From positions 39,955 through 103,954 of IMG/VR virus record IMGVR_UViG_3300046792_000297: a DNA stretch of 64,000 bases; one strand, given 5' to 3'. Each line of letters opens with the position of its first letter. The stretch's first letter is position 1. The notes under the pieces were generated by a model. That model saw only the letters and a list, made by a program, of their open reading frames with translations. It was not told the DNA's origin and did no database searches. The position numbers and the translations under genes are program-made. This document shows positions 1,707 to 58,981 of the stretch, one piece after another. Origin of the DNA: a virus.

Positions 1707-1878
1707 CCCCGAGCGGCTGAAGCGTTACCAGTGGGACCAGGACTCGCTCACCGTGGCCAGCGTGGGCACGGGCGAGGAAGTCAAGCTCGACCAGCCCAAG
1801 GAGGCCAAGAAGGACGACCAGGCCAAGGACCAGGCCATCTTCTCCAACTCGCTCGACGTGATGCTGGACGAGGAATAA
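1693..1878 (+). CDS. Small acidic protein overlapping the ART stop (candidate inhibitor/partner)
   Basis: AAGGAGG at 1674-1680; about 61 aa (TTG 1687 is an alternative start); ends AIFSNSLDVMLDEE; TAATG-coupled to the next gene. Confidence 0.7.
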   Translation: MPTIDPERLKRYQWDQDSLTVASVGTGEEVKLDQPKEAKKDDQAKDQAIFSNSLDVMLDEE

Positions 1879-2798
1879 TGATTAGCTGCCTGATCGCCAA
1901 CGGCTTGGAAGACTGGACCCTGGCGGTCGACGACTTCAAGGAAGCGGCGGTTCCGCGCGACGAGTCGGGCAAGTGGACCGGCAAGGGCGGTTCGAGCGGC
2001 GAAGCCAAGCCCCTGAACGCGGCGCACAAAGCCTGGGCCACGCGCAAAGCTAAACAGCAGGCGGCGCAATCGAAGAAGCCGGTCGACTATCTGGCCAAGA
2101 AGGTCGGCGGGCAAGGGGGCTCCAATCCGGGCGGGACCTATGAGGGCAGTGACGGCAAGAAACGCTACGTCAAGTTCTACAAGAACATGGCGCAGGGTCG
2201 GGCGGAATGCACGGCGGACACTATCTACAACGACCTGGGCATCGGCGCACACAAGAGCGACGTGTTCGAGGCGGACGGCAAAGAGGCGTTCGCGGCGGAA
2301 CTGATCGACGGCGGCGACCTGCTCAAGGATGTGGGCCTGAACAAGGAGAACGCTCGCGCCATCATGGAAGGCTTCGCGGCAGACGTGCTCATGGCCAACT
2401 GGGACAGCGTCGGCCTGGTCAACGACAACATCCTGCTCAAGGATGGCAAAGCCTACCGCATCGACAACGGGGCCACCTTCACGCACCGCGCGATGGCGTC
2501 CAGTCCGCCCAAGCCGGAAGGGCTGCTGCACAAGATCACCGAATGGGACGGGCTGTTCAACCCCAACATCAACGCGCAGTTCAGCCAGGTCGCCAAGGCC
2601 GCCGGATACAAATCGCCCAGCGACATCCCCGACATCAAGGCGCAAGTGGAGAAGATCGTCAAGCTCCGCGACCAGAGCGGCGGGTGGGACAAGTACCTCC
2701 AGGGCAAAGCGCCGTTCCTGTCCGACCAGGAGCGAAAGCAGTATGCCGGAATGCTGGACAGCCGCACCAAGCTACTGAGGGAGAAAGTCCAGGCGTGA
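1878..2798 (+). CDS. HipA/PI3-PI4-kinase-like kinase with shared leader
   Basis: GGSNPGG..Y...YVK, AE, ANWD..G...DNIL and RIDNG motifs; N-terminus MISCLIANGLEDWTLAVD-DFKEAAVPRDESGKW. Confidence 0.8.
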   Translation: MISCLIANGLEDWTLAVDDFKEAAVPRDESGKWTGKGGSSGEAKPLNAAHKAWATRKAKQQAAQSKKPVDYLAKKVGGQGGSNPGGTYEGSDGKKRYVKFYKNMAQGRAECTADTIYNDLGIGAHKSDVFEADGKEAFAAELIDGGDLLKDVGLNKENARAIMEGFAADVLMANWDSVGLVNDNILLKDGKAYRIDNGATFTHRAMASSPPKPEGLLHKITEWDGLFNPNINAQFSQVAKAAGYKSPSDIPDIKAQVEKIVKLRDQSGGWDKYLQGKAPFLSDQERKQYAGMLDSRTKLLREKVQA

Positions 2799-2808
2799 AG
2801 GGGTGGCG

Positions 2809-3672
2809 ATGAGAGATTGTCTGATCGGTAACGGCCTGGAGGATTGGACCCTCACCCTGGCGCTCGACGAGGGCGACTTCAAGGAGGAGCAGCACCCGCG
2901 CGACGAAACCGGCAAGTTCTCGCTGGGCAAAGGCGAGTCGACCGAGGAAGCCTTCAAGCATCCCACGACCGGCGAGTACGCGCCCAAGCGTTCGCAGCGC
3001 CACCAGGCCATTGTGGACAAGATCGTGGCGGGCAAGAAGTCCAGCGGAGCGCCCACCGCCTACATCATGGGCGGCGGATCGGCTTCGGGCAAGTCGACCG
3101 GCTTCAAGAAGAAGTTCGCCCGCAAGATGCGGATGGCGCTGGCGCACATCGACTCCGACGCCATCAAGAACCATCTTCCCGAGTACGAGAGGCTGAAGCA
3201 GATTGATCCCGAGAAGGCCGCCTACCGGGTGCATGAGGAGTCCAGCCACATCGCCAAGAAGGCGCTGGCGGCGGCCATTGCCGGGAAGCTCGACCTGGTC
3301 TACGACTCGACTGGCGCGGGCGGCGGCACGCAGGACATGGCCAAGCGGCTCAAGGGCGAGGGTTACAAGGTGCACGTGGTCTACTTCGACATTCCCATAC
3401 CGGAGGCCAAGGTGCGGGCCGGGAAACGGGCGGAGAAAACCGGGCGGCACATTCCCGAGCACGTGATCCAAGGTTCGCACAAGGGCAGCGCCAAGAACTT
3501 CATGGAGATGACCAAGGGCGGTCACATCGACAAGATGAGCCTCTACGATACGACCGAGCGCGTGCCCACGCTGGTCTACTCCAAGGAAGGTTCACGCCCT
3601 GGTATGATTATGGAAGGTGAGAAATGGAAAGAGTACATGAAGAAGGCGGGAGTGGAGGAGAACCAGAAGTGA
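2809..3672 (+). CDS. Zeta-toxin-family P-loop kinase with shared leader
   Basis: MGGGSASGKST Walker A, IDSDAIK..LPEY, HEESS, YDST, R...TGRHIP; N-terminus MRDCLIGNGLEDWTLTLALD-EGDFKEEQHPRDETGKF. Confidence 0.88.
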   Translation: MRDCLIGNGLEDWTLTLALDEGDFKEEQHPRDETGKFSLGKGESTEEAFKHPTTGEYAPKRSQRHQAIVDKIVAGKKSSGAPTAYIMGGGSASGKSTGFKKKFARKMRMALAHIDSDAIKNHLPEYERLKQIDPEKAAYRVHEESSHIAKKALAAAIAGKLDLVYDSTGAGGGTQDMAKRLKGEGYKVHVVYFDIPIPEAKVRAGKRAEKTGRHIPEHVIQGSHKGSAKNFMEMTKGGHIDKMSLYDTTERVPTLVYSKEGSRPGMIMEGEKWKEYMKKAGVEENQK

Positions 3673-3791
3673 TCCACCACTACACCGACGACACCGATTC
3701 CGACGTATTCCAAGACAAGGACGACCTGGCCGAGTTCGATGCCATGCTGGATAAAGCCAAGCAGGCGGCCAAGCAAAAACCCACCCAGTAA
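3669..3791 (+). CDS. 40-aa acidic peptide coupled to the zeta gene (candidate antitoxin)
   Basis: Not in the ORF track; GTGA overlap with the zeta stop, GGAGGAG RBS at 3654-3660; MIHHYTDDTDSDVFQDKDDLAEFDAMLDKAKQAAKQKPTQ. Confidence 0.7.
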   Translation: MIHHYTDDTDSDVFQDKDDLAEFDAMLDKAKQAAKQKPTQ

Positions 3792-3852
3792 TTCCCCTCA
3801 CATTCTGACCTTCTTCCGGCACCGGGAGAACCTCGACCCACGGAGAGAGCGC

Positions 3853-4095
3853 ATGGCCGACTGGGACGGAGCCCTCCAGGCTCCGCAGGGGATGTTTCGC
3901 GTGATTGGCGAGGACGAGCTACAGACACCAGCCGTGCGCTCGTGGATCGGCGACTACCGCTCGCTGGCTAGCGCCCGGCGGGTGGCCAACGACCACGCTA
4001 CGCCGCTGAATCCGGTAGTCGTATTCGATGACCAGAGCAAGACCCAGTGCCTCACCTGGGGCGACGTCGAAGTGGACGCGGAGGGCATCGTATGA
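3853..4095 (+). CDS. Hypothetical protein
   Basis: ATG after GGAGAG; ATGA overlap with the next gene. Confidence 0.65.
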   Translation: MADWDGALQAPQGMFRVIGEDELQTPAVRSWIGDYRSLASARRVANDHATPLNPVVVFDDQSKTQCLTWGDVEVDAEGIV

Positions 4096-5519
4096 GCGTG
4101 ACAGGGGGAACCACCGGTAGCTCGATCACGCTCGGCAGCCTGGGGCTGGTCAAGTACAGCGACGACGAGGTTGGCTGGGGCACGGGCTGGAACGGCAACA
4201 TGGACACCATCGACGCGGCGATCTCCAGCCTCCAGGTGGGCGGGTCGCAGGTGCAGGCCGACTGGGATGCGACCTCGGGCCTGGCCGAGATTCTCAACAA
4301 ACCGGACCTGGCTCCGGTCGCGACTTCGGGCGACTATGCCGATCTGGTCGGCGTGCCCGCGCTGCCGCACAACTTCAGTTCGCAGCCGCACCTGTTCCTG
4401 AACGGCTACAACGCCATCCTGGGCGTGTTCTCGGCGGCCCAGGCGACCGCGTCGGACGTCTCGGGGCTGGCACCTATCGCCATCTCGGGCAGCTACAACG
4501 ACCTCACCAACAAGCCAGTGCTGCCTGCGACTCAGGTGGCAGTGCCCAATCGCTTCTTCACCGCCTACAGCGCGACGACTGGCTTGTTTACGGAGGCGCA
4601 GCCTACAGCGCTGGACGTCTCCGGCCTGGCCGCCGTGGCAACCTCCGGCTCCTACACTGATCTCATCAACAAGCCGGTCCTGGCGGCTAACTCGCCTGCG
4701 GTGGCTCACCAGTTTCTCACCAGCTACGACAACATCACCGGGGCGTTCACCAAGGCCCAACCTGGCGCGGCGGATGTCAGCGGGCTGGCTCCTTCGGCAA
4801 CTATCGACACCACCAACGCGCTCAACATCACTTCGGGCACGCTGGCCGTGGCGCGGCTGCCTGTCATTCCGGCCACGCAGATCAGCGGGCTGGCGCTGGT
4901 GGCCACTTCGGGCTCCTATCTCGACTTGAGCAACAAGCCGGTGCTGGCAGCGACCATTGCCGCGACACCGAACAACTTCCTGACCGCCTACAACGCGGTC
5001 ACGGGTATCTTCACCAAGGGCCAACCGGCAGCGACGGACGTAACCGGCCTGGCCACGGTCGCCACGACCGGCAGCTACACCGACCTGATCAACAAGCCCA
5101 TCCTGCCAGTCAACACGGGCAGCACGCCGCACCAGTTCTTCATCGCCTACGACAACACGACCGGCGGCTTCCTCAAGGCGCAGCCAGCGGCGGCGGATGT
5201 GACTGGTTTGGCGACGGTCGCCACTTCGGGCTCCTACAACGACCTCACCAACAAACCAGTCTTGTCCACCGTGGCAGGCTCGGGCTCCTACCTGGACCTC
5301 ACGCACAAGCCGACCTACTCATTCTGCCCAGGCACGACGCCGGGTACGGTGTTCGTCTCGCCAGGCGCGGTGATCGCGGTGACCTACAACGGCACCGTGC
5401 TGCCGCGCGGCGTGGCCGCTCCCAAGCTGAGCTACACGCTGGCCGGGGATAACGTGACGATCACGCTCAACTTCACTGCCGAAGCCGGAGACCGAGTCGA
5501 TGCGTTCTGTACTACTTAG
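4092..5519 (+). CDS. Fibre-like structural protein with 53-aa repeats
   Basis: Five about 53-aa units starting LA.VATSGSY.DL.NKP plus partial copies; N-terminal LGL....GWG...N.N...ID motif typical of phage fibres. Confidence 0.8.
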   Translation: MSVTGGTTGSSITLGSLGLVKYSDDEVGWGTGWNGNMDTIDAAISSLQVGGSQVQADWDATSGLAEILNKPDLAPVATSGDYADLVGVPALPHNFSSQPHLFLNGYNAILGVFSAAQATASDVSGLAPIAISGSYNDLTNKPVLPATQVAVPNRFFTAYSATTGLFTEAQPTALDVSGLAAVATSGSYTDLINKPVLAANSPAVAHQFLTSYDNITGAFTKAQPGAADVSGLAPSATIDTTNALNITSGTLAVARLPVIPATQISGLALVATSGSYLDLSNKPVLAATIAATPNNFLTAYNAVTGIFTKGQPAATDVTGLATVATTGSYTDLINKPILPVNTGSTPHQFFIAYDNTTGGFLKAQPAAADVTGLATVATSGSYNDLTNKPVLSTVAGSGSYLDLTHKPTYSFCPGTTPGTVFVSPGAVIAVTYNGTVLPRGVAAPKLSYTLAGDNVTITLNFTAEAGDRVDAFCTT

Positions 5520-8500
5520 GGCAGTCGGAATAATGATTTTTGTGCTGGCGGGGCGGGCGGCGGCTCAGAGCAACCCGCACACCCAGATCGCCTGGCCCGC
5601 GAACTGCGACGACAGCAACTTCATGACCTACAACGTGCTCTCGAATACCTGCTTCAATGCCGGATCGACTAAACGTCCCATCGCGCCGCTAGCCAACGTT
5701 TCCCGGCCCGCGAGTTCCTCGGCCACCGGCGCGGCCATGCCCCAACAGGTGATCGCTTTCTTAGGTAATTCGCTGGTCGCGGGTGACACTGGGAGCACCA
5801 CCGAATTTTGCAATGAAGCAGGGATAGCTTCCACTAACGGACTTGGTCCTTTATTTATGGCGGGACACCAGTGCCGCCCGGCAACCAACATCACCGTGGA
5901 CAGCAGTAACAATGTGACCCTGGCGGTCAACAACGCCGACGGGTACTTTCAGAATGGTACGCGCTTCACCGCGTATGGTGGGGCAGGAGTGGATGGCGGA
6001 TGTCTCTACGATTCCTACATCGTCACCAGTGCCACGACAACGCAGATCGTATTCCCCAGTGCGCCCAACACGCCTTGCGCTCCGCTCGCCAGCACTCCGG
6101 TGGTCGCGAACAATGTTTTGTTGACCACCAGCCTCCAGAGGTTCGGCCAAAACGGCGGTTCGCTGGATTCATGGTTTAGCACCGTAGGCAACTGGACCTT
6201 TTCCGGCTACAAGACTTGGATTCAAGGAGCAATCGCGGCGGGGCAAACCCCGATTACCATCATGCGCGATGCGGGAATCATGACCAATTCCACCCGTATG
6301 AGCGCAATGGACTATCGGGCCTGGATGGCCGACCTCATGCCGGTGATCGCGGCTATCCAGGGCATTAGTGCTACGAATCCGGCAGGAGAAACAGTTTATG
6401 TTTCCAGCTTGCCATTCTACATCGACACCGGGAATCCCGAGGCTTGCAACACCGCTATGACGGCTTCCAGTACAGCGCCGTGTTCGGGAGGTCAGAACAC
6501 TGGGGCTGGCGGAGTGTATGTTCCACCCGTGCAGATGCCAGCCGGTGTGCAATATGTCTTCCCTTATGGGACACCGGGAAGCCAGTTTACAACTCCCGCT
6601 ACGATCACATCGGGAGCCATCAGCGCGGGAGCCAATACGGTAACGATCAATCCGTGTCCGCCTGATCTTTGGGGTGGTCCCGGCGATGTGATTCCCACCG
6701 CACTCGATTCGAACGGACTGCTACGCAGTCACGGCAACCTGATCCAGATGGTGGTTGATTCTGCCGCCTCGGCTGCGCAGGAACTTGTTTCGTTGACCGC
6801 GATCATCCCCACGGGAGCAACTGGACTGCATAATTGGCAGACTTGTCAGGTATCGTTCACTGCCGCTTTCGCTCATGCTGCGAACGCACCGATTTATGCC
6901 ACGCAGTTTACGGCTGACCAGACCTGGGTGCGGTGGAAGCTGCAAATCCCTTATGATGTGGCGGCTGCTTATCCCGGCCACATTGAAGTAATAGACACGC
7001 TCACCGCGATGGGGCGACAGGTTGCGAATCCCGGCTGGTGGATAGGGAATGAGCTTCATCCTGGTCTGGGTGGATACGCCAAGATCGGCAACCGGGAATT
7101 CACGGCACTAGCGTCCTATCAGCTTGCGCCCAAGCCTCCACCTACTCCTGATCCTTTAGCGTTTGATTATGCCACGCACCAAGTCAGCTTGCGAACAGGC
7201 GCGATTGACATCAACTTTGATCTCGACGCGGCAACGGCGGCTCGTGCCTTAGCTCTTGGGCACAATTGCGGTATGTACTACAACAAGTGCGACATAGACC
7301 CAGCTATGTTTTATCCCTCTGCCCTCTCGCCCACCATGACCTTCACTCACGGTACGCAGTTTGCTCGTATGACGATGGCGATTCAATCGGGGCAGAATTT
7401 GAGTGGAGACGGGCAAACGGGCGATTTTCTCTATACCAGTGTTGGGGGTAGCTGGCAACCAACGACACTAACTGCAATGGGGTTTGTTCCCGCCAGCTTA
7501 CTGGGTTTCAATTTTACCGGCACCCCCCCTGTGGACATGTCTGGCCGAGGGGCCATCATGCGTCCCTTCTATGCTGATCCGCTACAAGGAGCGAAGTTTG
7601 CCGCGCATCCGATCAGTTATCCGCTGAATGGCACCTATAACCTCAAGGTGGGCACTTCAACAACGAATAACCTGGTGTTTTCCATTCCCGTCGCTCAGAA
7701 TCCCGCTGTCATTGGCGGGCAGACTCTAACCTGTTTGCAAATCGAGATGCAAGCCGGAGACTGGATTGTCACCGCAGGAAACATTCCCGGTTCACAGGCT
7801 ACCGCCGCCGGGGTGTCCATCCAGTTGCCGACCGGAAGCTGGAATCCTCTCACCTGCACCTGGACGGACACCAGCGGAACAAACTACAGCGTCTACAACG
7901 GCGTGATGGCTACGCTGGTGCAGCAGTTCAGAGCGCCGGATGCAACGTTCAGTCTCGTTACCGCGCAGCAAAAAATACAAACACAAGCACTAACTGCGTT
8001 ACAGGGCGTTCAATCGCCCGGTACGCCCACTGTTATAGGTGTGGTTGGAGGAGCATTTACAAGCGCAACTACTGGCGGCAATTGCGCGAATGGAACAGCT
8101 TACACTCTAGGTCTGGCTTACATGCCTCTTGGTTGGGGAACGGACTACACTCATGCAGGTGCGATTCGCACCGTCTATGCAGTCTATACGCCAACTACCG
8201 GTACGACAACGGATGTTGTCGGAATCAATATCACTACAGCAGCGCCCTTTGGTTACACAACGGTAGCCTATCTGCTTATTGGTGGGACTTATTATGCGTT
8301 CGGCAAAGCACCGTCCACAGGTGCAGGTGTGATTACGACAACCTGCCCAGCAACCGGCGCTGGATTGATTGTGGCCAACACTTATGATAACGGCAGTGTG
8401 GGCTTTGTAGGCCCGGCATTCAGTTCGAGCGCCCCCCAGACCACTGTCAACTGTTCCACTTCAGGAACTGCAATCTTCGCGCAGACGCAAACCGGATCGA

Positions 8501-8697
8501 GCGAGAAGAAGGTGCTGGTCTATCTGGCGGCTTGCAGCGGCACGGCCAGCTACACCTTCCCGGTGCCGTTCACCCACTCGCCCAGCGTGTTCGGCTCGGA
8601 CGATGTGGCGGCCAGCATCGTGACGGCCAAGAGCACGACCGCCGTGACGGTGACCGGTGCGCCGTCGACCGGGGCGCTCGTGCTGGACAGCTTCTGA
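5500..8697 (+). CDS. Large secreted-type protein with SGNH/GDSL-like esterase domain and fibre-like C-terminus
   Basis: Signal-peptide-like MRSVLLRAVGIMIFVLAGRAAA-Q; AFLGNSL block I and ELHP...GY block V motifs; Cys/Thr/Gly-rich. Confidence 0.7.
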   Translation: MRSVLLRAVGIMIFVLAGRAAAQSNPHTQIAWPANCDDSNFMTYNVLSNTCFNAGSTKRPIAPLANVSRPASSSATGAAMPQQVIAFLGNSLVAGDTGSTTEFCNEAGIASTNGLGPLFMAGHQCRPATNITVDSSNNVTLAVNNADGYFQNGTRFTAYGGAGVDGGCLYDSYIVTSATTTQIVFPSAPNTPCAPLASTPVVANNVLLTTSLQRFGQNGGSLDSWFSTVGNWTFSGYKTWIQGAIAAGQTPITIMRDAGIMTNSTRMSAMDYRAWMADLMPVIAAIQGISATNPAGETVYVSSLPFYIDTGNPEACNTAMTASSTAPCSGGQNTGAGGVYVPPVQMPAGVQYVFPYGTPGSQFTTPATITSGAISAGANTVTINPCPPDLWGGPGDVIPTALDSNGLLRSHGNLIQMVVDSAASAAQELVSLTAIIPTGATGLHNWQTCQVSFTAAFAHAANAPIYATQFTADQTWVRWKLQIPYDVAAAYPGHIEVIDTLTAMGRQVANPGWWIGNELHPGLGGYAKIGNREFTALASYQLAPKPPPTPDPLAFDYATHQVSLRTGAIDINFDLDAATAARALALGHNCGMYYNKCDIDPAMFYPSALSPTMTFTHGTQFARMTMAIQSGQNLSGDGQTGDFLYTSVGGSWQPTTLTAMGFVPASLLGFNFTGTPPVDMSGRGAIMRPFYADPLQGAKFAAHPISYPLNGTYNLKVGTSTTNNLVFSIPVAQNPAVIGGQTLTCLQIEMQAGDWIVTAGNIPGSQATAAGVSIQLPTGSWNPLTCTWTDTSGTNYSVYNGVMATLVQQFRAPDATFSLVTAQQKIQTQALTALQGVQSPGTPTVIGVVGGAFTSATTGGNCANGTAYTLGLAYMPLGWGTDYTHAGAIRTVYAVYTPTTGTTTDVVGINITTAAPFGYTTVAYLLIGGTYYAFGKAPSTGAGVITTTCPATGAGLIVANTYDNGSVGFVGPAFSSSAPQTTVNCSTSGTAIFAQTQTGSSEKKVLVYLAACSGTASYTFPVPFTHSPSVFGSDDVAASIVTAKSTTAVTVTGAPSTGALVLDSF

Positions 8698-10789: not shown

Positions 10790-10955
10790 CGAGGAACTGC
10801 CCGAACTGCACTTCGGACGCGCCGACGCGCCGCCGCTCGACTGGAGGAAGTACAAAGATGATTCCCTGGATGATGACGAGCCGCTTGCGCAAACGCCTGC
10901 GAGCACGGTTGCAATCCTCGGCTTCGACCCCCTCGACCTCGACAGCGACGAATAA
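10758..10955 (+). CDS. Small very acidic protein overlapping the topoisomerase stop (candidate inhibitor/DNA mimic)
   Basis: AAGGAGG RBS; 65 aa, D/E-rich, ends TP.ST..ILGFDPLDLDSDE. Confidence 0.7.
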   Translation: MPEPQPQPQADEELPELHFGRADAPPLDWRKYKDDSLDDDEPLAQTPASTVAILGFDPLDLDSDE

Positions 10956-10977
10956 TGATTTTTCCGGGGGTGCGCTC

Positions 10978-11220: not shown

Positions 11221-14200
11221 ATGAAGCGAATCCTGGGCTGGACCCTCTTGCTCTTCGTGTGCCAGGCCGCGCTCGCGCAGATGGCGCAAACCCCCAACCT
11301 GGGCTTGAACCTGCCGCCGCAGGGCTACCCCAACTGGGCCAACCTCAACAACCAGAACTTCGTCACCATCGACGCCGTAGTCGGCGGCTTGCAAAAGCAG
11401 TGGCAGGGCACCTGGACCTCGGCGGTCACCTACCAACCGGCGCAAATCGTCACCTGGCAAGCCTCGTCCTACATCTCCATCACGGGCACCAACGCCAACA
11501 ACCAGCCCGACCTCTCGCCTGGCTACTGGGCCAAGATCGGCACGACGGCGGCGGGAGCCGTGAATGAGTTGCAGATGAATGCCGGGGGTAGCTTCGCCGC
11601 GACCACCGGCATGACCTACGACCTCACCAGCAATACGCTGCGTGCGCCGCAGGTCAACGTGAGCGGCAACATTCAGGGCGTCTCGTTGAAGTTGAGCGGG
11701 CTGGCTCCCGGCTCGGCATTGGTCTGCACCAGTGGCACCGACGGCACGCTGACCAATGGAGCGTGCAGCGTTCCACCCGCCTCTGTGGCCTGGCCGCCAA
11801 GCTGCACGGGGGTCTACGCGCCTGCTACCAATACCTGCGTAGCGGTGGGAACGGCGGCCAATCCCGCAGGCAACGTCAAGGAAGTGCAATTCAATGCAGG
11901 AGGGACGTTTGGCACTGATTCTGCCATCACCATCGACAACTCCACGCACACGCTCGGCTCACAAAACGTTTCCGGCAGCGCCAACACCGTTCTCTATGTG
12001 AAAGCTCCTCCATACAACGCCAAATGCGACGTTCATGTAGGCGGGTTGGGAGATGCGGTCATTACTTCCGGCACGACCACTTACGGTGGTTTCTCGACTG
12101 CGGATGTGGGCAAGACCGTCAAGGGCGTCTCATCTCAAGCTAATGGGAGCGTGTCTTATGTTGGCAAGATTGTTTCATGGGTAGGCGGGACCACCACGCT
12201 CAGCCCCGCCGCCACCATCACGCTTCATTATTGGGAGTGGGCAACCGACGATCATGACTCACTCATGGCAGCGCTCAATGATGCGTATGCTCAGAACGTA
12301 GAAATCCAGCTTCCCGCTGGGCAGTGCTTAACTAGCACGCTTGTCTGGAAAGGGCAGTCCTTTCACGGCTCTGGAAGGGGCGTAAGCTATGTCAGAGGTA
12401 TGCCGGGACAAGATGTGTTTCAGATGCCAGAGTATGGCACCAGTTACTCCATTACGTCATGGTCGATCACTGGGAACGTGGCGACTTTTCAGACTACTAG
12501 CAATAATCTGCTAGCAGGGAACGTCGTTACTCTCGGCGGCTTCGGAACATCCACGTTTTTCAATCTGCAAACCGTGACTGTCACTTCGGCTACAGGGACT
12601 CAATTTGTTGCGCCCATCACTCATGCTAATGGCTCTGCCACAGAAGCTGGCTTTGCGGCAACTGGTGGAGCATTTCCTATCACGTCGTGGTCGATCACTG
12701 GAAACGTGGCAACTGTTCAAGTAGCTAACAATTTTCCAGCGGGAGCCAATATTACTTTAAGCAGGTTTGGGACTTCCACATTTTTCAACGCTCAAAATGT
12801 GACCATCCTCGCGGCGGGTCTTTCTCCAACTCAGTTCTCTTTTAACTTTACTCATGCTAACGGTTCGGCCACGGAGTCTGGACTGGCGACAACCCAAGCT
12901 ACTTCCATACGCCAGTTCAACGTTCATGATCTCAGTATCGTAATCGATTCGACGGTGAACGCGGCAGCGACGGCGGCAGGTGGGAACAACACTTTTCCCT
13001 ACCGCATAGGCGGAACCTTTCAGGGGATGACGCCGTTCACTCCTCCCCCCGCTCCCGGTGTTCCAGTATTCGGAACGTGTGGCGCTGGGGGAGGGTACGC
13101 CGACGCTGGCGGAACTCTGGTGACTATCACCTGCCCCCTTACTGGGTTACCCCTCAACCTTGCCAGCTTAGAGCCGACGTGGGTGATCAATGCTCCAATT
13201 ACTGTCGATGGAGCAGGAGCGGCTGGCGGAGTATATGCAGGTCACATTCAAAGTATTGTCAACGATGGTGTCACCAGCGTTTCTGGTTCTGGAGGAAGCG
13301 GGATGACGGTAGGCACTTACCCGCTCTCCTTCTCTGGAGGGGGCGGGTCTGGCGCATCGGGGACCATCGCGGTGACAAACGCCACTACTTATGTGGTGCT
13401 TCTTAGGGTTGGAGGCGCAGGCTACACTTCTCCGCCAACGGTAACCGCTGCTACTGGAGGGACGCCGCCGACGTTTACAGCCGCCATCGGAACTAGCTGC
13501 GCTGGTGGGACCATCTGCACCGTGCGCGTGGATAATGCCATTGCTACATCAGTGAGTGCCACTACCGGTACTTGGTTAACCGCACAGACGCCACCGTGGT
13601 ACTTCGGCAACGCTGGCATCGCGATGCCGTGTTCTGGTGGGGGTGCTTGCAATGGAGTCGGCTTCAGTGTTATTCGCAACGTAAACTTTGATCAGGTAGC
13701 CAACGGCTATATCGGCAGAAGCCACACTACGGGTATCTTCACGCAGGCGCAGATGTACGGAGATAGCTTCGAGAACCTAGTCTTCACTCAGCTCTACGGA
13801 GGTTACATCGAGGTGCAGCCTCCTGCTGGAAATCTCAGCACCGCCGATACCATGTCATTCAAGGATATTAGCTTTTACAACGAGAACTTCCCGATCATGA
13901 CTTACAACGGCAATGATCGTGTGATCAACGGCATGAATATCTATCAAGAGCTTCTCCTTTCGGAGGGGCCGTTTTTCTTCAGCAGGCAGCAGGCTCTTTC
14001 GGGGTATCTAAACTGGGCGATCAACAGCTTCTATATCGAAGGCGGAGCTTCTACCAACGGAGAATGGGCGCGTTTTCAAGGTGGCCCTTTTCATATGAGG
14101 GCGGCCAGCTTCGGCGGCGGGAACCCGGCTGGATCATACATCGAGTTCACGGGTGGTGGGTCAAGTTTGTGGGAAGGTGGGATTGGCGGCGCTCTTCATA

Positions 14201-15951: not shown

Positions 15952-16045
15952 TAATGATTATTTTGGCCCTGTTCGCGCTGGCCGTACTCCTGGCGCTCAG
16001 CCGTTGGTGGCCCGACCTGTTGAACCCGCTCTGAGGAGAATCGGT

Positions 16046-16381: not shown

Positions 16382-16388
16382 CGTCGTA

Positions 16389-17249: not shown

Positions 17250-17260
17250 AGGACACCATA

Positions 17261-18490: not shown

Positions 18491-18505
18491 ACCACGGAGG
18501 GACTA

Positions 18506-18874: not shown

Positions 18875-18880
18875 CCGTCT

Positions 18881-42184: not shown

Positions 42185-42202
42185 AGGAGCCTCCCATAAT
42201 AA

Positions 42203-44514: not shown

Positions 44515-44829
44515 TCAAAATCTCTCATAGGTGACCAGCTTGCGGAGGCGCAGCATGGTCAGCACCTGGGGGCGGATTGCGCCGTCCCGCTTGCGTGCCC
44601 GCACGATGGGCTCGGTGGTGATGCCAGCGGCGCGGGCCAGCGCATTGACGCCGCCCGCCTCACTGATCGCGTCTTCCAGTTCCCGGCGTATCTGTTCCTC
44701 CGTGAGAATGACACGACGGCGCTTGGGCTTCTTCTTCATTGATTGCGGTTGTGCCATCGCAAGCACACGGTCTTGGCCACTATATTTCGCCGGGGCCGAA
44801 TTTGCAAGTTCAGGACTTATTGAGGTCAT
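44515..44829 (-). CDS. Cro-like HTH protein
   Basis: AI.EAGG..ALAR.AGI....I.R; start could be 44757 or 44739. Confidence 0.6.
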   Translation of the reverse strand: MTSISPELANSAPAKYSGQDRVLAMAQPQSMKKKPKRRRVILTEEQIRRELEDAISEAGGVNALARAAGITTEPIVRARKRDGAIRPQVLTMLRLRKLVTYERF

Positions 44830-47571: not shown

Positions 47572-47588
47572 GACTGCCTCCACAATAA

Positions 47589-48701
47589 TTATTTCTGTTG
47601 TGCGTCCCGCTCTTCGATCTGGCGGTTCAGGTCGGCCTTGATCTGGGCTTCGGAGAACTTGCCCATCTTGCCCAGGTAGTCCTTGCGCTCGGCCACCGTC
47701 CAGCCCAGAATCTCGAACAACTGCGAGAACGGACTGACGGCGGGCTTCTCTGGTTCCTGCTTGGCAGTCGCGGTGGTGGTCGCGGCAGCCTGCTCGACCG
47801 GCGAGGGCTTGGTGTTGGCCCAGACCATCGCCTGTTCGCGCTGTTCGGGCTTGATGTCGAGCGAGGTATCCACCTTCAGCACGTCCTTCAGGAAGGCGCG
47901 GCCCTCCTTGCTGCTGTGGTTGGCCTTGGCGGCGTTGTGCCACTCGGCGGCGAAGGCGGACGCCTCCTGCTTGAGTACGGCGGCGGCGGGATCGCCGTTG
48001 CCGTTGCCGTTCGTCGCAGCAGACTGCATGGGGGTGGTCTGCTCGGCGGCGGCAGGGGCGGGCGGGAAGCTGGCTTCGATGGTGTTGGGGTAGTCCTGCA
48101 ACTCCTCCACGCACTTCATGCCGCGCAGCGCGTCGGCGAACTTGTCGCGCAGGGCGAACGCACGGGCACGCATCATCAACATGCGCTTGGGGTAGCAGTG
48201 CCAGGGCGCGGGGTTGGACATAGGGTTGCCGTCGCGGCCCGTGATCTTCTCCCGCGTGTCCCACAAGTTAGCCGTCTTGGCGTCGGCCACGCTGAAGCGC
48301 GACTCGTGAACTTCTTGTCCGCGCCGCTTAACCTGGCAGACGGCGACCAGGTTGTCGCCCTCGCCCTCCCAGAATTCTTTGTGGCCCTCGTAGGCCGGAT
48401 GCGCCTGCACAACCGCAAGCATGTCGTCGCCGAAGATACCGGGACGGCCATTGATCACCGCGATGGCGATCACCGATTGCATGATCGACAGGCCCAGCGC
48501 CTGGCCGAACTTGGCGGCCACGAACACGTCGCCGGGTTTGTTGCGGTAACTATTCGGACAGAGCGTGGAACCGGCAATGATGGTGGACAGTTCCATAGCT
48601 TCGGCCAGGTTGTCGGGCATCGTCCAGAGCCGGTCGGGCAAGGCCAGCGGCGCGGACGAGTCATCGTGGCGTGGTGCGAGAGTAAGTGCTGCGGTTCCCA
48701 T
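47589..48701 (-). CDS. RecT/Redbeta-like ssDNA annealing protein
   Basis: G..LGL..MQS...IAVINGRP, FS..DA..A.LW, PW..YPKRML..RA..FALRD.F.D.L.G. Confidence 0.88.
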   Translation of the reverse strand: MGTAALTLAPRHDDSSAPLALPDRLWTMPDNLAEAMELSTIIAGSTLCPNSYRNKPGDVFVAAKFGQALGLSIMQSVIAIAVINGRPGIFGDDMLAVVQAHPAYEGHKEFWEGEGDNLVAVCQVKRRGQEVHESRFSVADAKTANLWDTREKITGRDGNPMSNPAPWHCYPKRMLMMRARAFALRDKFADALRGMKCVEELQDYPNTIEASFPPAPAAAEQTTPMQSAATNGNGNGDPAAAVLKQEASAFAAEWHNAAKANHSSKEGRAFLKDVLKVDTSLDIKPEQREQAMVWANTKPSPVEQAAATTTATAKQEPEKPAVSPFSQLFEILGWTVAERKDYLGKMGKFSEAQIKADLNRQIEERDAQQK

Positions 48702-48727
48702 ATATCCTCCGAATTTCAAGTGCGTCA

Positions 48728-48756
48728 ATCATAAGTTATCGGTTGTGATTGCGCAA
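48728..48756 (-). promoter_or_regulatory. Sigma70-like promoter for the recombination operon
   Basis: TTGCGC-17-TATGAT on the minus strand. Confidence 0.6.
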
Positions 48757-49245: not shown

Positions 49246-49905
49246 ATGGCCACCACGGTTGCACCCAAGACCGAACCGCTGCCGACCAGGATGCAGCACT
49301 TACCCGTCGACCCCAAGCGCGGATTCGTAGTGCCCTGGTTTGTCGATTGGATCGATGGCGTGCCCGAGTTTCGCGCGATGGACGGGTCGAAGTATCTGCG
49401 AGCAATTCGCGAGAAACTGTGCTGGGTGTGCGGCAATAAACTGGCGGGCGTGTTCGTGTTTGTCGCGGGACCCATGTGCGGAATCAACCGCACCAGTTCC
49501 GAGCCGCCCAGCCACATCGAGTGCGGACGCTGGTCGGCGCGAAACTGCCCGTTCTTGTCGAACCCCAACATGGTGCGCCGCGAGGACGACCTGATCAACA
49601 ACGCCAAGTTTCGCGACGGTGCTCCTGGCGTTGCTATTGCCCGCAATCCGGGCGTGGCTATGCTCTGGTTCACGCGCGAATATGAACTCTTCAACGACGG
49701 CAAGGGTCGAGCGCTCATCTTGATGGGTAGGCCAAGCGGCGTCGAGTGGTACTGTTACGGTCGCGCCGCCACGCGGGACGAGGTCGAGGAATCCATCGAC
49801 AACGGCATTGGGGCGCTGGAAGCGATGGCCCGCACCGAACCGGGCGGCATGGAAGACCTGGCGCGGAAGCGGCAGCGGTTCCAACGCTGGCTGCCGACGG
49901 CGTAA
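49246..49905 (+). CDS. Conserved Zn-binding phage protein
   Basis: RG..VPWFV, CWVCG, GPMC, EPP.H.EC...CPFL; AGGAG RBS. Confidence 0.8.
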   Translation: MATTVAPKTEPLPTRMQHLPVDPKRGFVVPWFVDWIDGVPEFRAMDGSKYLRAIREKLCWVCGNKLAGVFVFVAGPMCGINRTSSEPPSHIECGRWSARNCPFLSNPNMVRREDDLINNAKFRDGAPGVAIARNPGVAMLWFTREYELFNDGKGRALILMGRPSGVEWYCYGRAATRDEVEESIDNGIGALEAMARTEPGGMEDLARKRQRFQRWLPTA

Positions 49906-49923
49906 TCATTATTGGGAGGGTCG

Positions 49924-50346: not shown

Positions 50347-50585
50347 CGATCCAGTACGAAGAGCCGGGAGTGCCGGTCGAGCGGGCCGTGTTCACCGACA
50401 TGCAGGGCAAGCCGCTTTGGGAAGAACAGCCCTACCAGTTCTCGCGGATGAGCGCGGTCGGTGAGTATCTGGTACAGGCGGGTCAGCCCTACACCGTGGT
50501 CCGCGTAGCGGTGTGTGAGGGCTGCATGTACGTTAACCTGGAAGCGATGGATCGCGAGGTTCCCCTCACTGGTGTGGCCCGATGA
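50343..50585 (+). CDS. Hypothetical protein
   Basis: ATGA overlaps on both sides. Confidence 0.65.
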   Translation: MTIQYEEPGVPVERAVFTDMQGKPLWEEQPYQFSRMSAVGEYLVQAGQPYTVVRVAVCEGCMYVNLEAMDREVPLTGVAR

Positions 50586-51280
50586 GCAAGTCCGGTCCCA
50601 CCGACTTGGCCGCCTACCATGCCGGGTCGCCCGGCCAGAAGGCGTGGATCACGCGCAAGAGCCGCGAAGCCAGCCAGTCGCGTCAGCCGGTGCAGGCGAC
50701 CGGCGAGGTCATGCCGCCCAAGGATGACTTCACTTCCCTCTCCGATCTGACACCCGACCCGCGCAACGCCCGCAAGCATGGCGAGCGCAACATCGCCACG
50801 CTGGAGAAGAGCCTGGAACAATTCGGCGCGGCCCGCTCCATCGTGGTCGACGAGCATGGCCGCATCCTGGCCGGGAACGGCGTGGTGGAGGCGGCGGCCA
50901 ACGTGGGCATCGAACGGGTGAAGACGGTGGAGGCGGATGGCAACGAGATCATCGCCGTGGTGCGGCGCGGGCTGACCGAAGCGCAGAAGCTGGGCCTGGC
51001 CGTGGCCGACAACCGGGTCGCCGAGTTGGCCGAGTGGGACACCACCATGCTGGCGCAGATCGGCACCGAGATCGACCTGACCCCGTTCTTTACCGAACAG
51101 GAACTGGGCGACTTGCTCAGCGACACCGAGCACCTGCGCGAAGTGGAGAAGTCGCTCCAGCCCAAACAGTTCGTGCGGGTGCTGGTCTCGGTGCCCATCG
51201 ACCACGCCGCCGAAGCCAAGGAACTGCTCGACCAACTGGCCACCGTACCGGAGATCGAGATTGACTACTCGGCGAATTGA
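50582..51280 (+). CDS. ParB/Srx N-terminal-domain protein
   Basis: L.PDPRNARKH, SL..FG..R.IVVD...ILAGNG..EAA, L..ADNR..ELAEWD. Confidence 0.88.
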   Translation: MSKSGPTDLAAYHAGSPGQKAWITRKSREASQSRQPVQATGEVMPPKDDFTSLSDLTPDPRNARKHGERNIATLEKSLEQFGAARSIVVDEHGRILAGNGVVEAAANVGIERVKTVEADGNEIIAVVRRGLTEAQKLGLAVADNRVAELAEWDTTMLAQIGTEIDLTPFFTEQELGDLLSDTEHLREVEKSLQPKQFVRVLVSVPIDHAAEAKELLDQLATVPEIEIDYSAN

Positions 51281-51709: not shown

Positions 51710-51966
51710 CCATGAATCCCTGGCTCAAGGAATGGAATGTTTGGGTTGAGTTGACCCGCCTGGAGCGCACCGCGCTGATCGAAGTTCTTATTGACTACTA
51801 TCGCCGCGTGGACGCCACGCAGGAATTTGTGGACGTGGCGACGGGACAAACCATTAACGTAGGGGACCTGATCACGATCTTGACCAGCAAAGCCCGCGAC
51901 CAGGATGGTAACTACGTCGGCTTTGCTCTCGATAAATTACACCCAGAGCCGGGACCAATTCAGTGA
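51706..51966 (+). CDS. Hypothetical protein
   Basis: Coupled ORF. Confidence 0.6.
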   Translation: MTMNPWLKEWNVWVELTRLERTALIEVLIDYYRRVDATQEFVDVATGQTINVGDLITILTSKARDQDGNYVGFALDKLHPEPGPIQ

Positions 51967-52502
51967 CCACCAAGACCGATAACTCCTTCCTGCGCGACAA
52001 GGTTCAGCTTCGCGTGAACAACCTTCCGCCCGGCGACCTGCGGGTGCTCGACTGCTACTCGGGCAAGGGCCTGATCTGGGCCGCCGTCCAGCGGCTCACG
52101 GGGCGCAAGATCACCGTGCTGCCCATCGACAAGCGCGGCGACAAGGATGACTTCCACCTGCCCGGCGACAACCTTGCCTACCTGGAGACGCTCGACCTGA
52201 GTAAGTTCAACGTGGTGGATTTAGACGCCTACGGCGTACCGTTCGAGCAGATCGAGTGCCTGGTGCGGCGGCGCTATCAGGGCACCGTGTTCGTGACCGC
52301 CATCCAGAGCGTGATGGGCCGGTTGCCAAACGCCATGCTGGAAGCGGTTGGCTTCACCGCAGCCCAGATCGACAAGGCTCCCACACTGCTCTGCAAGCGC
52401 GGGTTCGAGTACATGCTTCAATACCTGGCCAGCATCGGCGTCAGCCGTATCCGGCACCGTTCAGTAGCTCGCAAACATTACTTCGTTATGGAGATGAAAT
52501 GA
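51963..52502 (+). CDS. SAM-dependent methyltransferase-like protein
   Basis: VLDCYSGKG motif I; F.VVDLDAYG.P motif. Confidence 0.75.
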   Translation: MTTKTDNSFLRDKVQLRVNNLPPGDLRVLDCYSGKGLIWAAVQRLTGRKITVLPIDKRGDKDDFHLPGDNLAYLETLDLSKFNVVDLDAYGVPFEQIECLVRRRYQGTVFVTAIQSVMGRLPNAMLEAVGFTAAQIDKAPTLLCKRGFEYMLQYLASIGVSRIRHRSVARKHYFVMEMK

Positions 52503-53273: not shown

Positions 53274-53735
53274 CTAGACTTCCCCCGTTGCAATTCCTAG
53301 AACTTTTGAAGTTTGAATCATGTGTCGCCGTGCGCCCTCGGGGTCCGTTTTGCTTACTGCATGGTTCCCGAATCCATCTTCGGGGCGAATGGCATGGAGG
53401 CAATGAGGACAACACGGCAGCATATTGTGCCTACGCCACGCCTTTTCAACCTTCAATGCGGCTTTGTGCGTAACGTTCTTTGCGATTTCCTCGTCAAGCT
53501 GCTTACGGTCAGCGTCCAGCCTCTCACGCATACGCTTTAGACCCTCATTCATCGTGAGGAACGCCCACCATGCCGTGACTTGCTTTTTGCAGTCCTTGCA
53601 CTCAACCGTCTGACCGTTCTCGTCGAAGAGTAAGTGAAGGTGCGGGCACCCTATGTCGGTCGAGAAGCGTAGACCGTGAGTGTCTCCCTTCACTTCAATC
53701 CGGTAGTCCTCAATATTGAAAACCTTCAAAATCAT
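53274..53735 (-). CDS. Zn-binding hypothetical protein (lower GC)
   Basis: C.H, VEC.DC, CPHC motifs. Confidence 0.7.
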   Translation of the reverse strand: MILKVFNIEDYRIEVKGDTHGLRFSTDIGCPHLHLLFDENGQTVECKDCKKQVTAWWAFLTMNEGLKRMRERLDADRKQLDEEIAKNVTHKAALKVEKAWRRHNMLPCCPHCLHAIRPEDGFGNHAVSKTDPEGARRHMIQTSKVLGIATGEV

Positions 53736-54322
53736 ATCTCCCCCGGCGAGGACGGCACATTATTGCGAACGCGGCGGTTCTCGCGCTCGACCTGGTTGTG
53801 GTGCTGGCGGCAAAGCGTGATGCCGTTCGACACGTCGTAGCGCAGGTCGGGGTAGTCCATGAAGGGCAGGATGTGGTGGGCGTGCAGCCCCTTCCACCGG
53901 CCCTGGCTCTCGGTTGCGCCGCAGCCGCGCCACTGGCAGCGATGACCGTCGCGGGCCAGCACCTGCTTGCGCCAGGAGCGGGTCCGCGCCTTGGCGATCT
54001 TCAAGGCCGAGCACACGCCGCCCTTCCAGGCGTGGCTCTTCTCGCCGCGCTGGGCCAGGCCGATCTTCAGGCGGTGCTCGGGCGTCAGGCAGCGTTGGCG
54101 CAGCTTGGCCAGCGTGGCTTCGCTGTGGCGGCGCAGCCGCCCCGCCTCGGCGATGCGCTGGCGCGTGGCTTCCGTGTGGTGGCGGCCCTGCTTGGCGGCC
54201 CGCATCTTCTCGATCACGGGCGCAGGCATACGCTTGCCGGTCCAGTAGCCGGGCCTGCCGGTCTGGGCGCGGGAGATCGCGGCCTTGTGAGCCTCGGAGA
54301 TCGGCTTGCGCTTCTGCTTCAT
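53732..54322 (-). CDS. NUMOD3-repeat HNH homing endonuclease
   Basis: Repeated HSE.T..KI motifs; W.GG; WR..V..RD...C...C...LHAHHI...NGITLC..HH. Confidence 0.88.
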   Translation of the reverse strand: MKQKRKPISEAHKAAISRAQTGRPGYWTGKRMPAPVIEKMRAAKQGRHHTEATRQRIAEAGRLRRHSEATLAKLRQRCLTPEHRLKIGLAQRGEKSHAWKGGVCSALKIAKARTRSWRKQVLARDGHRCQWRGCGATESQGRWKGLHAHHILPFMDYPDLRYDVSNGITLCRQHHNQVERENRRVRNNVPSSPGEI

Positions 54323-57644: not shown

Positions 57645-57673
57645 AGTATATCACCAATCGGAATGATGTACAA
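57645..57673 (-). promoter_or_regulatory. Sigma70-like promoter
   Basis: TTGTAC-17-TATACT. Confidence 0.65.
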
Positions 57674-57727
57674 GCAAGAACGGGGCCAAAGGGTATAATC
57701 AAGGCCATCCGAATGCAAGACAACCTC

Positions 57728-57758
57728 GGGGTGCGATCTTGAGTCGCACCCCTTTTTT
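57728..57758 (+). terminator. Terminator hairpin with U-tract on the + strand
   Basis: ggggtgcga-tcttgag-tcgcacccc-tttttt. Confidence 0.7.
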
Positions 57759-57771
57759 GCCCGGTGGGGCG

Positions 57772-58203
57772 CTATTCGGTGGGCGCGGGCGGCTGCCCGC
57801 TGACGGCGCGGAGGAACTCGTCCTGGGCCACCCGGCGTGCGCGGACCAGTTCGCGCAACTCGGCGAAGTCTTCGCGGATGTTGCTGGCATCCTGTTCCCT
57901 GACCACCATCTCGACCAGGGCGAACTCGTGGTTGTGGACGAAGCGCATGGCGGCGTTGGCTACGGCGACCGCTGAATCCTCGAACTCGTGCATCGCCTTG
58001 TTAGTGCGCTCGATGCCTTCCGGCGTGGTGCAGCCGCGCGGCGTGAGGTCGATGAAGCCGACCTGCGTTACTTCGACGGCTCCCTCCTCGCGGATGCCGA
58101 AGTCTTCCGGGTCGGCGATGATCTCGACCGAGTCGGGCACGGCGTTGATGTCGAAGCCATCCGACCCGTGGCCGGTGAATGTGCGGTACTCGTTGTCTGC
58201 CAT
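57772..58203 (-). CDS. Hypothetical protein
   Basis: AGGAG RBS. Confidence 0.7.
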   Translation of the reverse strand: MADNEYRTFTGHGSDGFDINAVPDSVEIIADPEDFGIREEGAVEVTQVGFIDLTPRGCTTPEGIERTNKAMHEFEDSAVAVANAAMRFVHNHEFALVEMVVREQDASNIREDFAELRELVRARRVAQDEFLRAVSGQPPAPTE

Positions 58204-58210
58204 ATAATGA

Positions 58211-58981
58211 TTATTCTCCTGATGTCAGTTGCGGTTGTTGCGCGGCGGCCTGTTCGGCCAGCCCGCGACGGTAGTCGTCCAGCCACGCCTTGGCGTTGCG
58301 CAGGTTGCGGCTGGCCTCGATGATCGAGCGGATCACGTCAATGGCCTGTCGGATTTCGTTGGACTTCATGGTAGCCACATGGGGATCGCTGGCGCTCCAG
58401 CAGCCATGCCACTTCAGCCACTCGGTCGGCTCGGCCATGCTGCCGTAGCCGTGCTTGGGGCTCTTGTTCAACCAGCCGCGAATGGCGTCGGCCAGCACGA
58501 AGTTTTCCAGCCCGCGTGCGTAGTCCTGGTGGAGCATGTTGTAGATGGCCCCGCCGCTCCCATCGTGGCGGCGCTCGATGCGCTCCCAACGCTTGTCGTG
58601 GCGCTTGTCGGCGCTGGTGACCTTCAGGAACTCCAGCGAGTAGTAGCGTGGCTTGGCGTAGCCGGTCTCGTCGTTGTCGATCACCGAGGCGGCGAAGGCA
58701 ATCCGCGCCGGATCGGGCAGGTGCGGGAAGCGCCAGGTCATCGTGTCGGCCAGTTCGGGATCGGCCAGCATGGCGGCGGCCAGCGAGTTCAGGTAGTCGG
58801 CAGTGAACTGCTCGACAATGGGCAGTTCCGGCGAATGCTGGGTGTGCCCGTCGCCGTAAGTCTCGAACATCAGCATGTGCATGTCCACCAGCGCGTGCGT
58901 CTTCCACGAGCCGGAATCGTAGATGTAGCCGTACTTGGCCGGGTAGGCCAGGGATGGAAACTTCGTGAAGGTGTCGGACAT
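58211..58981 (-). CDS. Hypothetical protein
   Basis: AGGAG RBS before ATG 58981; GC3-rich. Confidence 0.7.
   Translation of the reverse strand: MSDTFTKFPSLAYPAKYGYIYDSGSWKTHALVDMHMLMFETYGDGHTQHSPELPIVEQFTADYLNSLAAAMLADPELADTMTWRFPHLPDPARIAFAASVIDNDETGYAKPRYYSLEFLKVTSADKRHDKRWERIERRHDGSGGAIYNMLHQDYARGLENFVLADAIRGWLNKSPKHGYGSMAEPTEWLKWHGCWSASDPHVATMKSNEIRQAIDVIRSIIEASRNLRNAKAWLDDYRRGLAEQAAAQQPQLTSGE

Follow-up and report, generated by a model that had tools for sequence, protein, structure and literature searches.

Genome organization and the dispersed 13-bp palindrome

The DNA under study (the window) is a stretch of 64,000 nucleotides, bases 39955–103954 of a 103,954-bp IMG/VR virus record with 62% guanine plus cytosine (GC), and the element in question is a 13-bp palindrome rich in adenine and thymine (AT), AATAATSATTATT, copies of which are scattered over the whole record. 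The record, labeled G000, probably represents an uncultured 104-kb soil phage of an Acidobacteria myovirus lineage. Its ends share a 127-bp repeat, so the assembly closes on itself, and CheckV gives a completeness of 100%. About 175 genes were called from codon usage over the whole record; they form a leftward early arm (genome 1–29 kb), a rightward block with the DnaB, terminase, portal, head, and tail genes (30–81 kb), and mixed-strand blocks up to 104 kb. Functions were assigned to Ku, an ATP-dependent DNA ligase, DnaB, a HerA-like ATPase, the large and small terminases, HicB, HicA, an exonuclease, a ParB-like protein, a RecT-like annealing protein, a radical-SAM enzyme, a Uma2 nuclease, an HNH nuclease, and an AAA+ ATPase. 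IMG/VR holds one close relative, a syntenic genome of 95.6 kb and 57% GC (G001, the sister phage), which is 65–79% identical in nucleotide sequence where it can be aligned, has a 94% identical capsid, and has 83 of 173 proteins in common with G000.

The palindrome has a 6-1-6 layout with the core ATAAT-N-ATTAT. With at most two mismatches to AATAATNATTATT, the window contains 18 matches corresponding to 16 distinct sites, as against 0.15 expected from dinucleotide shuffles, in which the largest value was 1. The initial annotation, made from the letters of the window, had counted the same 16 copies at the same positions and put the chance expectation roughly at 0.1 per 64 kb; its additional copy with three mismatches was located at position 19500. 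The array, which it had called genome-wide, indeed spans the entire record beyond the window, with 26 sites at up to two mismatches plus a few three-mismatch copies inside long gaps. The sites in the window are as follows (window coordinates; strand does not apply to a palindrome; ORF, open reading frame; aa, amino acids):

1874–1886: AATAATGATTAGC; a 61-aa ORF ends at its TAA, and the following gene begins at the overlapping ATG
5529–5541: AATAATGATTTTT; at the 5' edge of a 1065-aa low-GC ORF that is missing from the sister phage
10951–10963: AATAATGATTTTT; 270 bp upstream of a 1576-aa ORF
15950–15962: AATAATGATTATT, a perfect site; overlaps the stop of the 1576-aa ORF
19500–19512: ATTAATCATTGTC, a weak site (3 mismatches, 13.3 bits); inside a 7-kb gap, the sister having a perfect site at the same gene junction
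22989–23001: ACTAATTATTATG; within the major capsid gene (T N Y Y), where G000 has ACT AAT TAT TAT and G001 has ACG AGC TAT TAT
24990–25002: AACAATGATTATT; within a small ORF, upstream of a 302-aa gene
28091–28103: AATAATGTTTATC; within a 477-aa gene (sheath is the earlier label), the orthologous codons of the sister having no site
31199–31211: AATAATCATTGTT; a 50-aa ORF ends at its TAA
33237–33249: AAGAATAATTATG; within a 291-aa gene of the late module, baseplate region, the sister having a site in the same gene at other codons
36399–36411: AATAAAGATTATA; a 364-aa gene ends at its TAA, the next gene starting 6 nt on
40605–40617: AGTAATTATTATT; directly past the last gene of the rightward late module
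42195–42207: CATAATAATTATG; at the downstream end of the leftward operon with the exonuclease and RecT-like genes
47581–47593: CACAATAATTATT; the RecT-like gene ends at the TAA of the minus-strand half-site
49901–49913: CGTAATCATTATT; a 219-aa gene ends at its TAA
53238–53250: ACTAATCATTATT; at a convergent junction, giving the stop of the last rightward gene
58203–58215: TATAATGATTATT; between two leftward genes, with the stop of one inside it and the start of the other 6 nt away
61713–61725: AATAATCTTTTGT, a weak site (3 mismatches, 10 bits); at a strand-switch junction

Scans with a position weight matrix (PWM) were made reciprocally, each genome being scored with the matrix from the other genome only. 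At a threshold of at least 12 bits, the sister-trained matrix found 30 sites in G000 (0.75 in shuffles) and the G000-trained matrix found 31 in G001 (1.45 expected). The result does not depend on a prior choice of word: among all 5-N(0–8)-5 palindromes, ATAAT-N-ATTAT ranks first in G000, about 1,300-fold above the composition expectation, and it ranks first in G001 too. The enrichment of the word amounts to ~100-fold or more.

The motif is limited to 13 bp, positions 2–12 being near-invariant and the flanks being ordinary GC-rich sequence, and it is strictly symmetric, which fits the dimeric protein proposed in the initial annotation. The mismatches per half, with sites oriented to the coding strand, number 53 and 45. 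Of 52 orientable sites, 41 have G or C at the center (on the coding strand, C in 24 and G in 17), without a strand preference; a bias toward G on the top strand of G000 is not repeated in G001. No conserved hairpin or terminator structure was found around the sites, the mean minimum free energy of −17.8 being less stable than the −22.5 of random 73-mers.

Spacing, position, and turnover of the sites

Over the whole genome, about 30 sites lie at intervals of ~3.5 kb, and the array is far too even for chance. The coefficient of variation (CV) of the gaps between the 26 sites is 0.40, compared with ~0.95 for random placement, and none of 20,000 simulations was as even; a null model drawing sites from real gene junctions gave the same 0 of 20,000. 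For the reciprocal PWM sets, the CV is 0.38 in G000 and 0.45 in G001, with largest gaps of 6.0 and 6.2 kb, respectively; the largest gap in G000 is 5.4–6.0 kb. The spacing of 1.6–5.4 kb quoted in the initial annotation holds when the three-mismatch site at 19500 is counted; without it, there is a gap of 7.0 kb, from 15950 to 22989. In the 30-site set, no simulation had a largest gap this small, and the smallest gap is ordinary (P = 0.09), so that the limit on the largest gap departs from chance more strongly than the smallest gap does. This suggests that what is maintained is the proximity of each part of the genome to a site, more than mutual repulsion of sites.

With respect to genes, many sites lie at gene ends. 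Eleven of the 26 contribute, as the TAA of a half-site, the stop codon of the gene upstream, on either gene strand, and one perfect site (genome 37726) provides the stops of two convergent genes at once. The remaining sites lie over start codons, in spacers, or within genes, and G001 shows the same pattern. The only in-frame stop possible in the word is TAA, and two of its three frames are open (N-N-x-Y or I-I/M-I-I); in a tightly packed genome, overlap with a stop codon therefore accommodates the word at the least cost and is not evidence of termination. Four sites in the left arm are located 10–130 bp upstream of early promoters, which they do not overlap.

Sites inside genes number 8, compared with 0.99 ± 0.87 (maximum 3) in 200 synonymous-codon shuffles. 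The selection at the DNA level that the initial annotation had suspected from runs of T-ending codons is thus borne out, as an approximately eightfold excess over codon-preserving controls. The capsid, sheath, and baseplate sites rest on amino-acid and codon choices that are not shared by the 94% identical sister capsid or by the other orthologs.

The array is conserved in the sister phage as ~31 evenly spaced sites, although most individual positions are not. The position-conserved junction sites are those upstream of the ligase operon, in the divergent region beside the DnaB operon, ahead of the gene that follows the scaffold region, and where the tail module ends. Intragenic sites differ in codon or in gene between the two phages, and further sites are private to one genome. 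Since these positions differ while number and spacing are kept, the sites turn over. No surplus of sites was observed at the breakpoints of synteny between G000 and G001.

Beyond the sister, two short metagenome fragments (58% GC, capsid 89–91% identical) contain one site each. Five complete relatives that have the structural module only (capsid 78–81% identical, 64–79 kb, 39–46% GC) contain no site at up to one mismatch and no other dispersed palindrome. The array is thus present in genomes with the non-structural module and absent from those with the structural module alone, which indicates that it travels with the non-structural module. A nucleotide search of GenBank phages gave no relative, and a tblastn search with the capsid gave distant matches only (up to 35%).

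A separate observation concerns the structural module itself. Phages with a 78–84% identical capsid (L004–L027, G002–G006) have 39–48% GC and 64–79 kb, as against 57–62% and 96–104 kb, which means that one structural module serves lineages of very different base composition; these lineages presumably have differing hosts.

The probable host of the phage belongs to the Acidobacteria, judging from sequence homology. The best bacterial relatives of the phage Ku (up to 62% identity, among 185,579 species genomes) are nearly all from Acidobacteriota/Terriglobales, pointing to Acidobacteriaceae as the probable host clade, whose usual GC content fits that of the phage. A search for transfer RNA genes in the phage found none and hence gave no hint of the host. 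In five Acidobacteriaceae genomes (26 Mb), the 11-bp core occurs once, in a galT-like coding sequence, and the 13-mer at up to one mismatch occurs 6 times, compared with 8 for the reversed control. At this threshold, the word is ~500 times denser in the phage than in these genomes. A word so rare in the probable host and so dense in the phage can serve as a phage-specific mark.

Two giant ORFs, of 1065 aa (window 5500–8697) and 1576 aa (11221–15951), have lower GC and atypical codon usage, and G001 lacks both. Both are flanked by motif sites, and the two longest site-free gaps lie over them; they look like recent acquisitions that have so far gained no internal sites.

The early arm contains a second family of repeats (genome 1–20000), consisting of sigma-70-like early promoters with TTTACA/TTGACA, a spacer of 16–18 nt, and TG-n-TATTCT. 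Their spacer holds the conserved palindrome TCAATCWGATT (9 copies per 20 kb, 0.03 expected), which is probably the operator of a regulator other than that of the 13-mer. Examples of these repeats are:

genome 126–146, minus strand: early-promoter repeat
genome 4143–4163, minus strand: early-promoter repeat
genome 12120–12140, minus strand: early-promoter repeat
genome 15471–15491, minus strand: early-promoter repeat

The phage also encodes an unusually full toolkit for DNA ends and recombination (L001 denotes genome 1–20000):

L001:9307–10146, minus strand: Ku
L001:10458–11768, minus strand: WGR-domain ATP-dependent DNA ligase
window 46098–46745, minus strand: exonuclease
window 47589–48728, minus strand: RecT-like protein
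L002:3037–4794, minus strand: HerA-like ATPase

Models of site function and candidate readers

We propose that the sites form a phage-specific lattice read by a symmetric binder that the phage itself encodes and that acts over a limited range; we give this reading a probability of about 0.45. According to it, a dimeric DNA-binding protein encoded in the non-structural module would recognize the 13-bp palindromes, and the sites would act jointly, not as local promoter operators. Each site would nucleate or load an activity reaching a few kilobases, and because of this range limit, selection would keep all parts of the chromosome no more than ~3 kb from the nearest site. With the word near-absent from the probable host chromosome, the lattice would also set the phage DNA apart. 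We infer that a protein reads the sites, that it is a phage product, and that it acts over a limited range. The idea of a dimeric protein tiling the genome, put forward in the initial annotation, remains plausible and fits the symmetry; a Fur/PerR system or a true stoperator system is not plausible.

The consequence of such coating or marking may be protection, organization, silencing, or recruitment of DNA enzymes. A more specific form, in which a dedicated protein coats, organizes, or protects phage DNA alone, or recruits the ligase, topoisomerase, or ParB-like enzymes to it (a "self-marking" lattice), is a tentative and rather doubtful suggestion. If true, it would amount to a sequence-based distinction between self and host DNA in a phage without modified bases, and the array would then exemplify a widespread kind of phage chromosome architecture that has yet to be described.

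Three proteins were considered as candidate readers, and a fourth gene product, similar to ParB, is discussed further below:

window 44515–44739, minus strand: candidate reader, a 74-aa helix-turn-helix (HTH) protein with an isoelectric point of 11, a basic N-terminal arm, and a putative recognition helix, EPIVRARK, that G001 shares without change
genome 26683–26943, minus strand: candidate reader, an 86-aa Fis-type HTH protein whose operon starts at a position-conserved site in both phages
window 42758–43324, minus strand: weaker candidate reader of 188 aa, 41% identical in G001, with a C-terminus that looks winged-helix-like by eye and without a family match
window 50582–51280, plus strand: ParB-like N-domain protein of 232 aa, 77% identical in G001, with a ParB/Srx fold

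The 74-aa protein is a live candidate; its homologs are known only from the two motif-bearing genomes in IMG/VR and, in a large protein database, as P0004 on a 5.3-kb metagenome contig. The 86-aa protein is found in IMG/VR in the two motif-bearing genomes only. Of the winged-helix candidates named in the initial annotation, the product of the gene at 42758 is the weaker candidate listed above, and that of the gene at 48882 has no ortholog in the sister phage, which shares the motif.

HicB was rejected as a reader. The HicA/HicB toxin–antitoxin pair (genome 34157–34738, minus strand, and 34783–34802, in L002) is kept in G001, and the promoter region of hicAB in G000 contains a perfect palindrome of another kind, GTAAACAA-TT-TTGTTTAC, and no site.

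Profiling against the five distant relatives left 59 candidates for the reader because these relatives share the structural module alone. Phages found through the HerA-like protein (45–77% identity, GC 54–59%) contain no array; they share almost nothing else with G000, so the reader is not narrowed further in this way.

Several points weigh against the proposed lattice. Pfam and PHROGs gave no convincing regulator among the 83 proteins common to both phages, and searches of ~80 proteins against Pfam, PHROGs, and PDB sequences returned nothing regulatory beyond weak HTH matches. The host assignment is based on one gene, Ku, and on GC content. The array is known from two full genomes and two fragments, which makes tests of co-occurrence low-powered, and even spacing by itself is no proof of spreading or sliding. 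Finally, each of the four left-arm sites follows a stop codon and precedes an early promoter, a place in which one would look for a terminator and which would suit a static insulator just as well.

The alternatives are considered below in order of decreasing probability. In the first, the sites would serve as static roadblocks or insulators, much as stoperators do: a repressor bound to them would halt RNA polymerase where genes and modules end and would keep the genome silent during a carrier or plasmid-prophage state, or it would separate transcription units. Many sites do fall exactly at gene ends, at convergent junctions, or in the interval separating a stop codon from the early promoter after it, and the early arm has fewer intrinsic-terminator-like hairpins than expected (7 in L001 1–20000 versus 19.5 ± 4.4 in shuffles, with one on the coding strand); the HicAB pair could hint at a plasmid-like state. 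However, the sites are symmetric and have no polarity with respect to transcription, unlike stoperators (PMC4351075, PMC9283540), approximately one third of them lie within essential late genes, and most of their positions differ between the two phages. The TAA register, as noted above, follows from the way the word fits over a stop codon. In an annotation that is incomplete, no integrase, ParA, or CI-like repressor came up; among ~80 proteins scanned with Pfam and PHROGs, there was no repressor, integrase, or partition system, many ORFs being without any match. We consider this model unlikely, though a reasonable rival in its insulator or roadblock form. The term "stoperator-like" of the initial annotation is thus only loosely supported: it suits the many 13-bp copies and their frequent location at gene ends, but not their symmetry and lack of polarity.

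According to the second alternative, the sites are parS- or OB-like loading sites for the ParB-like protein of the phage, working as a sliding clamp of the KorB type. The protein is encoded by both phages and matches PHROG 620, "ParB-like partition protein" (E = 1e-29), and its predicted structure matches those of ParB, Noc, and KorB (Foldseek E from 6e-5 to 2e-2), the model being of modest quality with a predicted local distance difference test (pLDDT) score of 66. Moreover, the Cluster O phages, which have dispersed dyad repeats, also encode a protein with a ParB-like domain (PMC4351075). On the other hand, it has the N-domain alone: Pfam ParB_N was not reached, even in a six-frame search, no HTH family was matched, and residues after ~150 are modeled as short helices of low confidence, homologs having a methyltransferase in their place. 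At the position of the GxxR motif (GERRxR) of the ParB cytidine triphosphatase (CTPase), our reading of the alignment gives AGNG, invariant in 8 homologs. Its homologs are the N-domains of ParB–DNA-methyltransferase fusions in other viral contigs. GC-rich viral contigs encoding homologs of 49–56% identity contain no sites; an AT-richer contig contains 7, with 3.2 expected, which is not significant. Without an HTH domain and GxxR, and with homologs that occur without an array, the ParB-like protein alone is unlikely to read the sites. What the initial annotation had named ParB is thus a ParB N-domain that lacks an HTH. Even allowing for a further partner protein, we regard this alternative as quite unlikely.

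Two further features of this region were observed. Residues 18–26 of the ParB-like protein read QKAWITRK, and those of the sister phage read QKAAITRR. A conserved 179-aa ORF 700 bp downstream (window 51963–52502, plus strand) has motifs that look SAM-methyltransferase-like by eye (VLDCYSGKG, DLDAYG) and no family match; together with the ParB-like protein, it may form a split ParB-methyltransferase.

A third alternative is that the sites are processing points of DNA (nicking, recombination-initiation, priming, or unwinding points), their spacing allowing the stress of replication, recombination, or packaging to be dealt with in ~4-kb units. AT-rich 13-mers within DNA of 62% GC are easily melted, the phage is richly equipped for work on DNA ends and recombination (Ku, the ATP-dependent ligase, exonuclease, RecT-like protein, and HerA-like ATPase), and even spacing would suit a process limited by processivity. 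Nevertheless, the strict dyad symmetry and the near-invariant TAAT-N-ATTA point to a sequence-specific dimer and not to mere melting, symmetric nicking would cut both strands, and the HNH nuclease (window 53732–54322) has no ortholog in the sister. We consider a role in DNA processing very unlikely.

Still less probable are boxes for a host protein of the Fur family (Fur, PerR, or Zur), through which a metal or peroxide sensor would regulate the phage or would itself be titrated by phage DNA. The core ATAAT-N-ATTAT is the center of the 7-1-7 Fur box (PMC11353095), and several G001 sites read GATAATCATTATC or GATAATCATTATG, like the right part of the 19-bp Escherichia coli consensus. The phage itself has no Fur-family gene: a six-frame search of the whole genome with PF01475 gave 0 matches at E ≤ 1, with positive controls. 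The five Acidobacteriaceae genomes encode 2–3 Fur homologs each, yet with the core occurring once in 26 Mb and the 13-mer at control level, a host regulator of such specificity would have no host regulon. Most sites are also outside promoters (at stop codons, inside genes, and at convergent junctions), and none of the four left-arm sites lies over a −35/−10 region. The link to Fur/PerR drawn in the initial annotation is therefore reduced to a likeness of sequence at the center of the box, and we regard this explanation as highly improbable.

An RNA-level function or coding by-product (TAATG as a stop–start word, an AU-rich target of RNase E, or a context for translation initiation) would account for the stop codons and occasional next start codons within sites and for AU-rich islands left unstructured in GC-rich messenger RNA, but it is close to refuted. 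The half downstream of the stop is conserved as well as the upstream half, and the coding-strand center is more often C than G, so that ATG start codons are not driving the motif. Sites within genes use two reading frames, other sites lie between convergent genes or in spacers distal to promoters, and even spacing has no rationale at the RNA level.

Comparison with known dispersed-site systems

The even spacing, the bounded largest gap, the turnover of sites with their number kept, and the near-absence of the word from the probable hosts are the features that restrict the mechanism, and together they point to a function of the whole chromosome rather than gene-by-gene regulation.

The E. coli Fur box has a 19-bp consensus, GATAATGATAATCATTATC, which is read as overlapping 7-1-7 repeats (PMC11353095). 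The phage word has the same 11-bp core and is likewise an inverted repeat about one central base; its sites differ from Fur boxes in being single 13-mers without an overlapping second repeat and in lying mostly outside promoters.

The stoperators of Cluster A mycobacteriophages (L5, Bxb1) are asymmetric, oriented with transcription, and read by the monomeric immunity repressor of a temperate phage (PMC9283540, PMC6550527). They resemble the phage sites in being 13 bp long, in having 20–35 copies genome-wide, many of them in short gaps at gene ends, and they are bound by a phage-encoded protein. The phage sites differ in being symmetric, in having no polarity, and in occurring within late genes as well.

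On the IncP plasmid RK2, KorB reads a 13-bp palindrome with a central G/C, present as 12 dispersed sites that are linked to promoters. KorB acts there as a sliding clamp, at kilobase range from the dispersed OB operators (PMC13768133, PMC13584720). In both cases, one compact palindrome is dispersed over a mobile replicon, which for KorB is read by a dimeric protein of the ParB family, and KorB thus provides a mechanistic precedent for action of limited range from dispersed sites. The differences are that the ParB-like protein of the phage has neither an HTH domain nor the GxxR CTP motif, that no KorA/TrbA-like partner and no ParA were found in the phage, and that the phage has ~30 evenly spaced sites, some of them intragenic. 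A reading by ParB or KorB is therefore not automatic for such arrays, the ParB-like protein here being without a DNA-reading domain.

The closest resemblance is to the Cluster O mycobacteriophages (Corndog and its relatives), whose 17-bp dyad repeats, TGTTCGGNNNCCGAACA, are of unexplained function and were predicted to be bound by a dimeric protein (PMC4351075). In print since 2015, the dispersed dyad repeats of these apparently lytic phages have figured only as an unexplained curiosity. In both groups, more than 30 copies of one dyad word are distributed across a GC-rich genome without a sign of lysogeny, with approximately one third of the copies inside ORFs and most of them away from promoters. 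The Cluster O word, however, is 7-3-7 and GC-rich, in contrast to the AT-rich 6-1-6 word of the phage, and its sites are uneven: our recount in Corndog gave 34 sites with a CV of 1.06, crowded toward the right end, compared with a CV of 0.40 across G000. Virion type and host phylum are different as well. The ParB-like proteins of the two groups show no BLASTP similarity, nor do the AAA and HerA-like proteins, and the Ku proteins, at 24% identity, are not orthologous. The identity of the reader would reveal either a new way of organizing or labeling phage DNA or a new family of global phage regulators. Taken as a whole, the array is a variant of the dispersed-dyad kind known from Cluster O, one that is AT-rich, has a Fur-like core, and is evenly spaced genome-wide.

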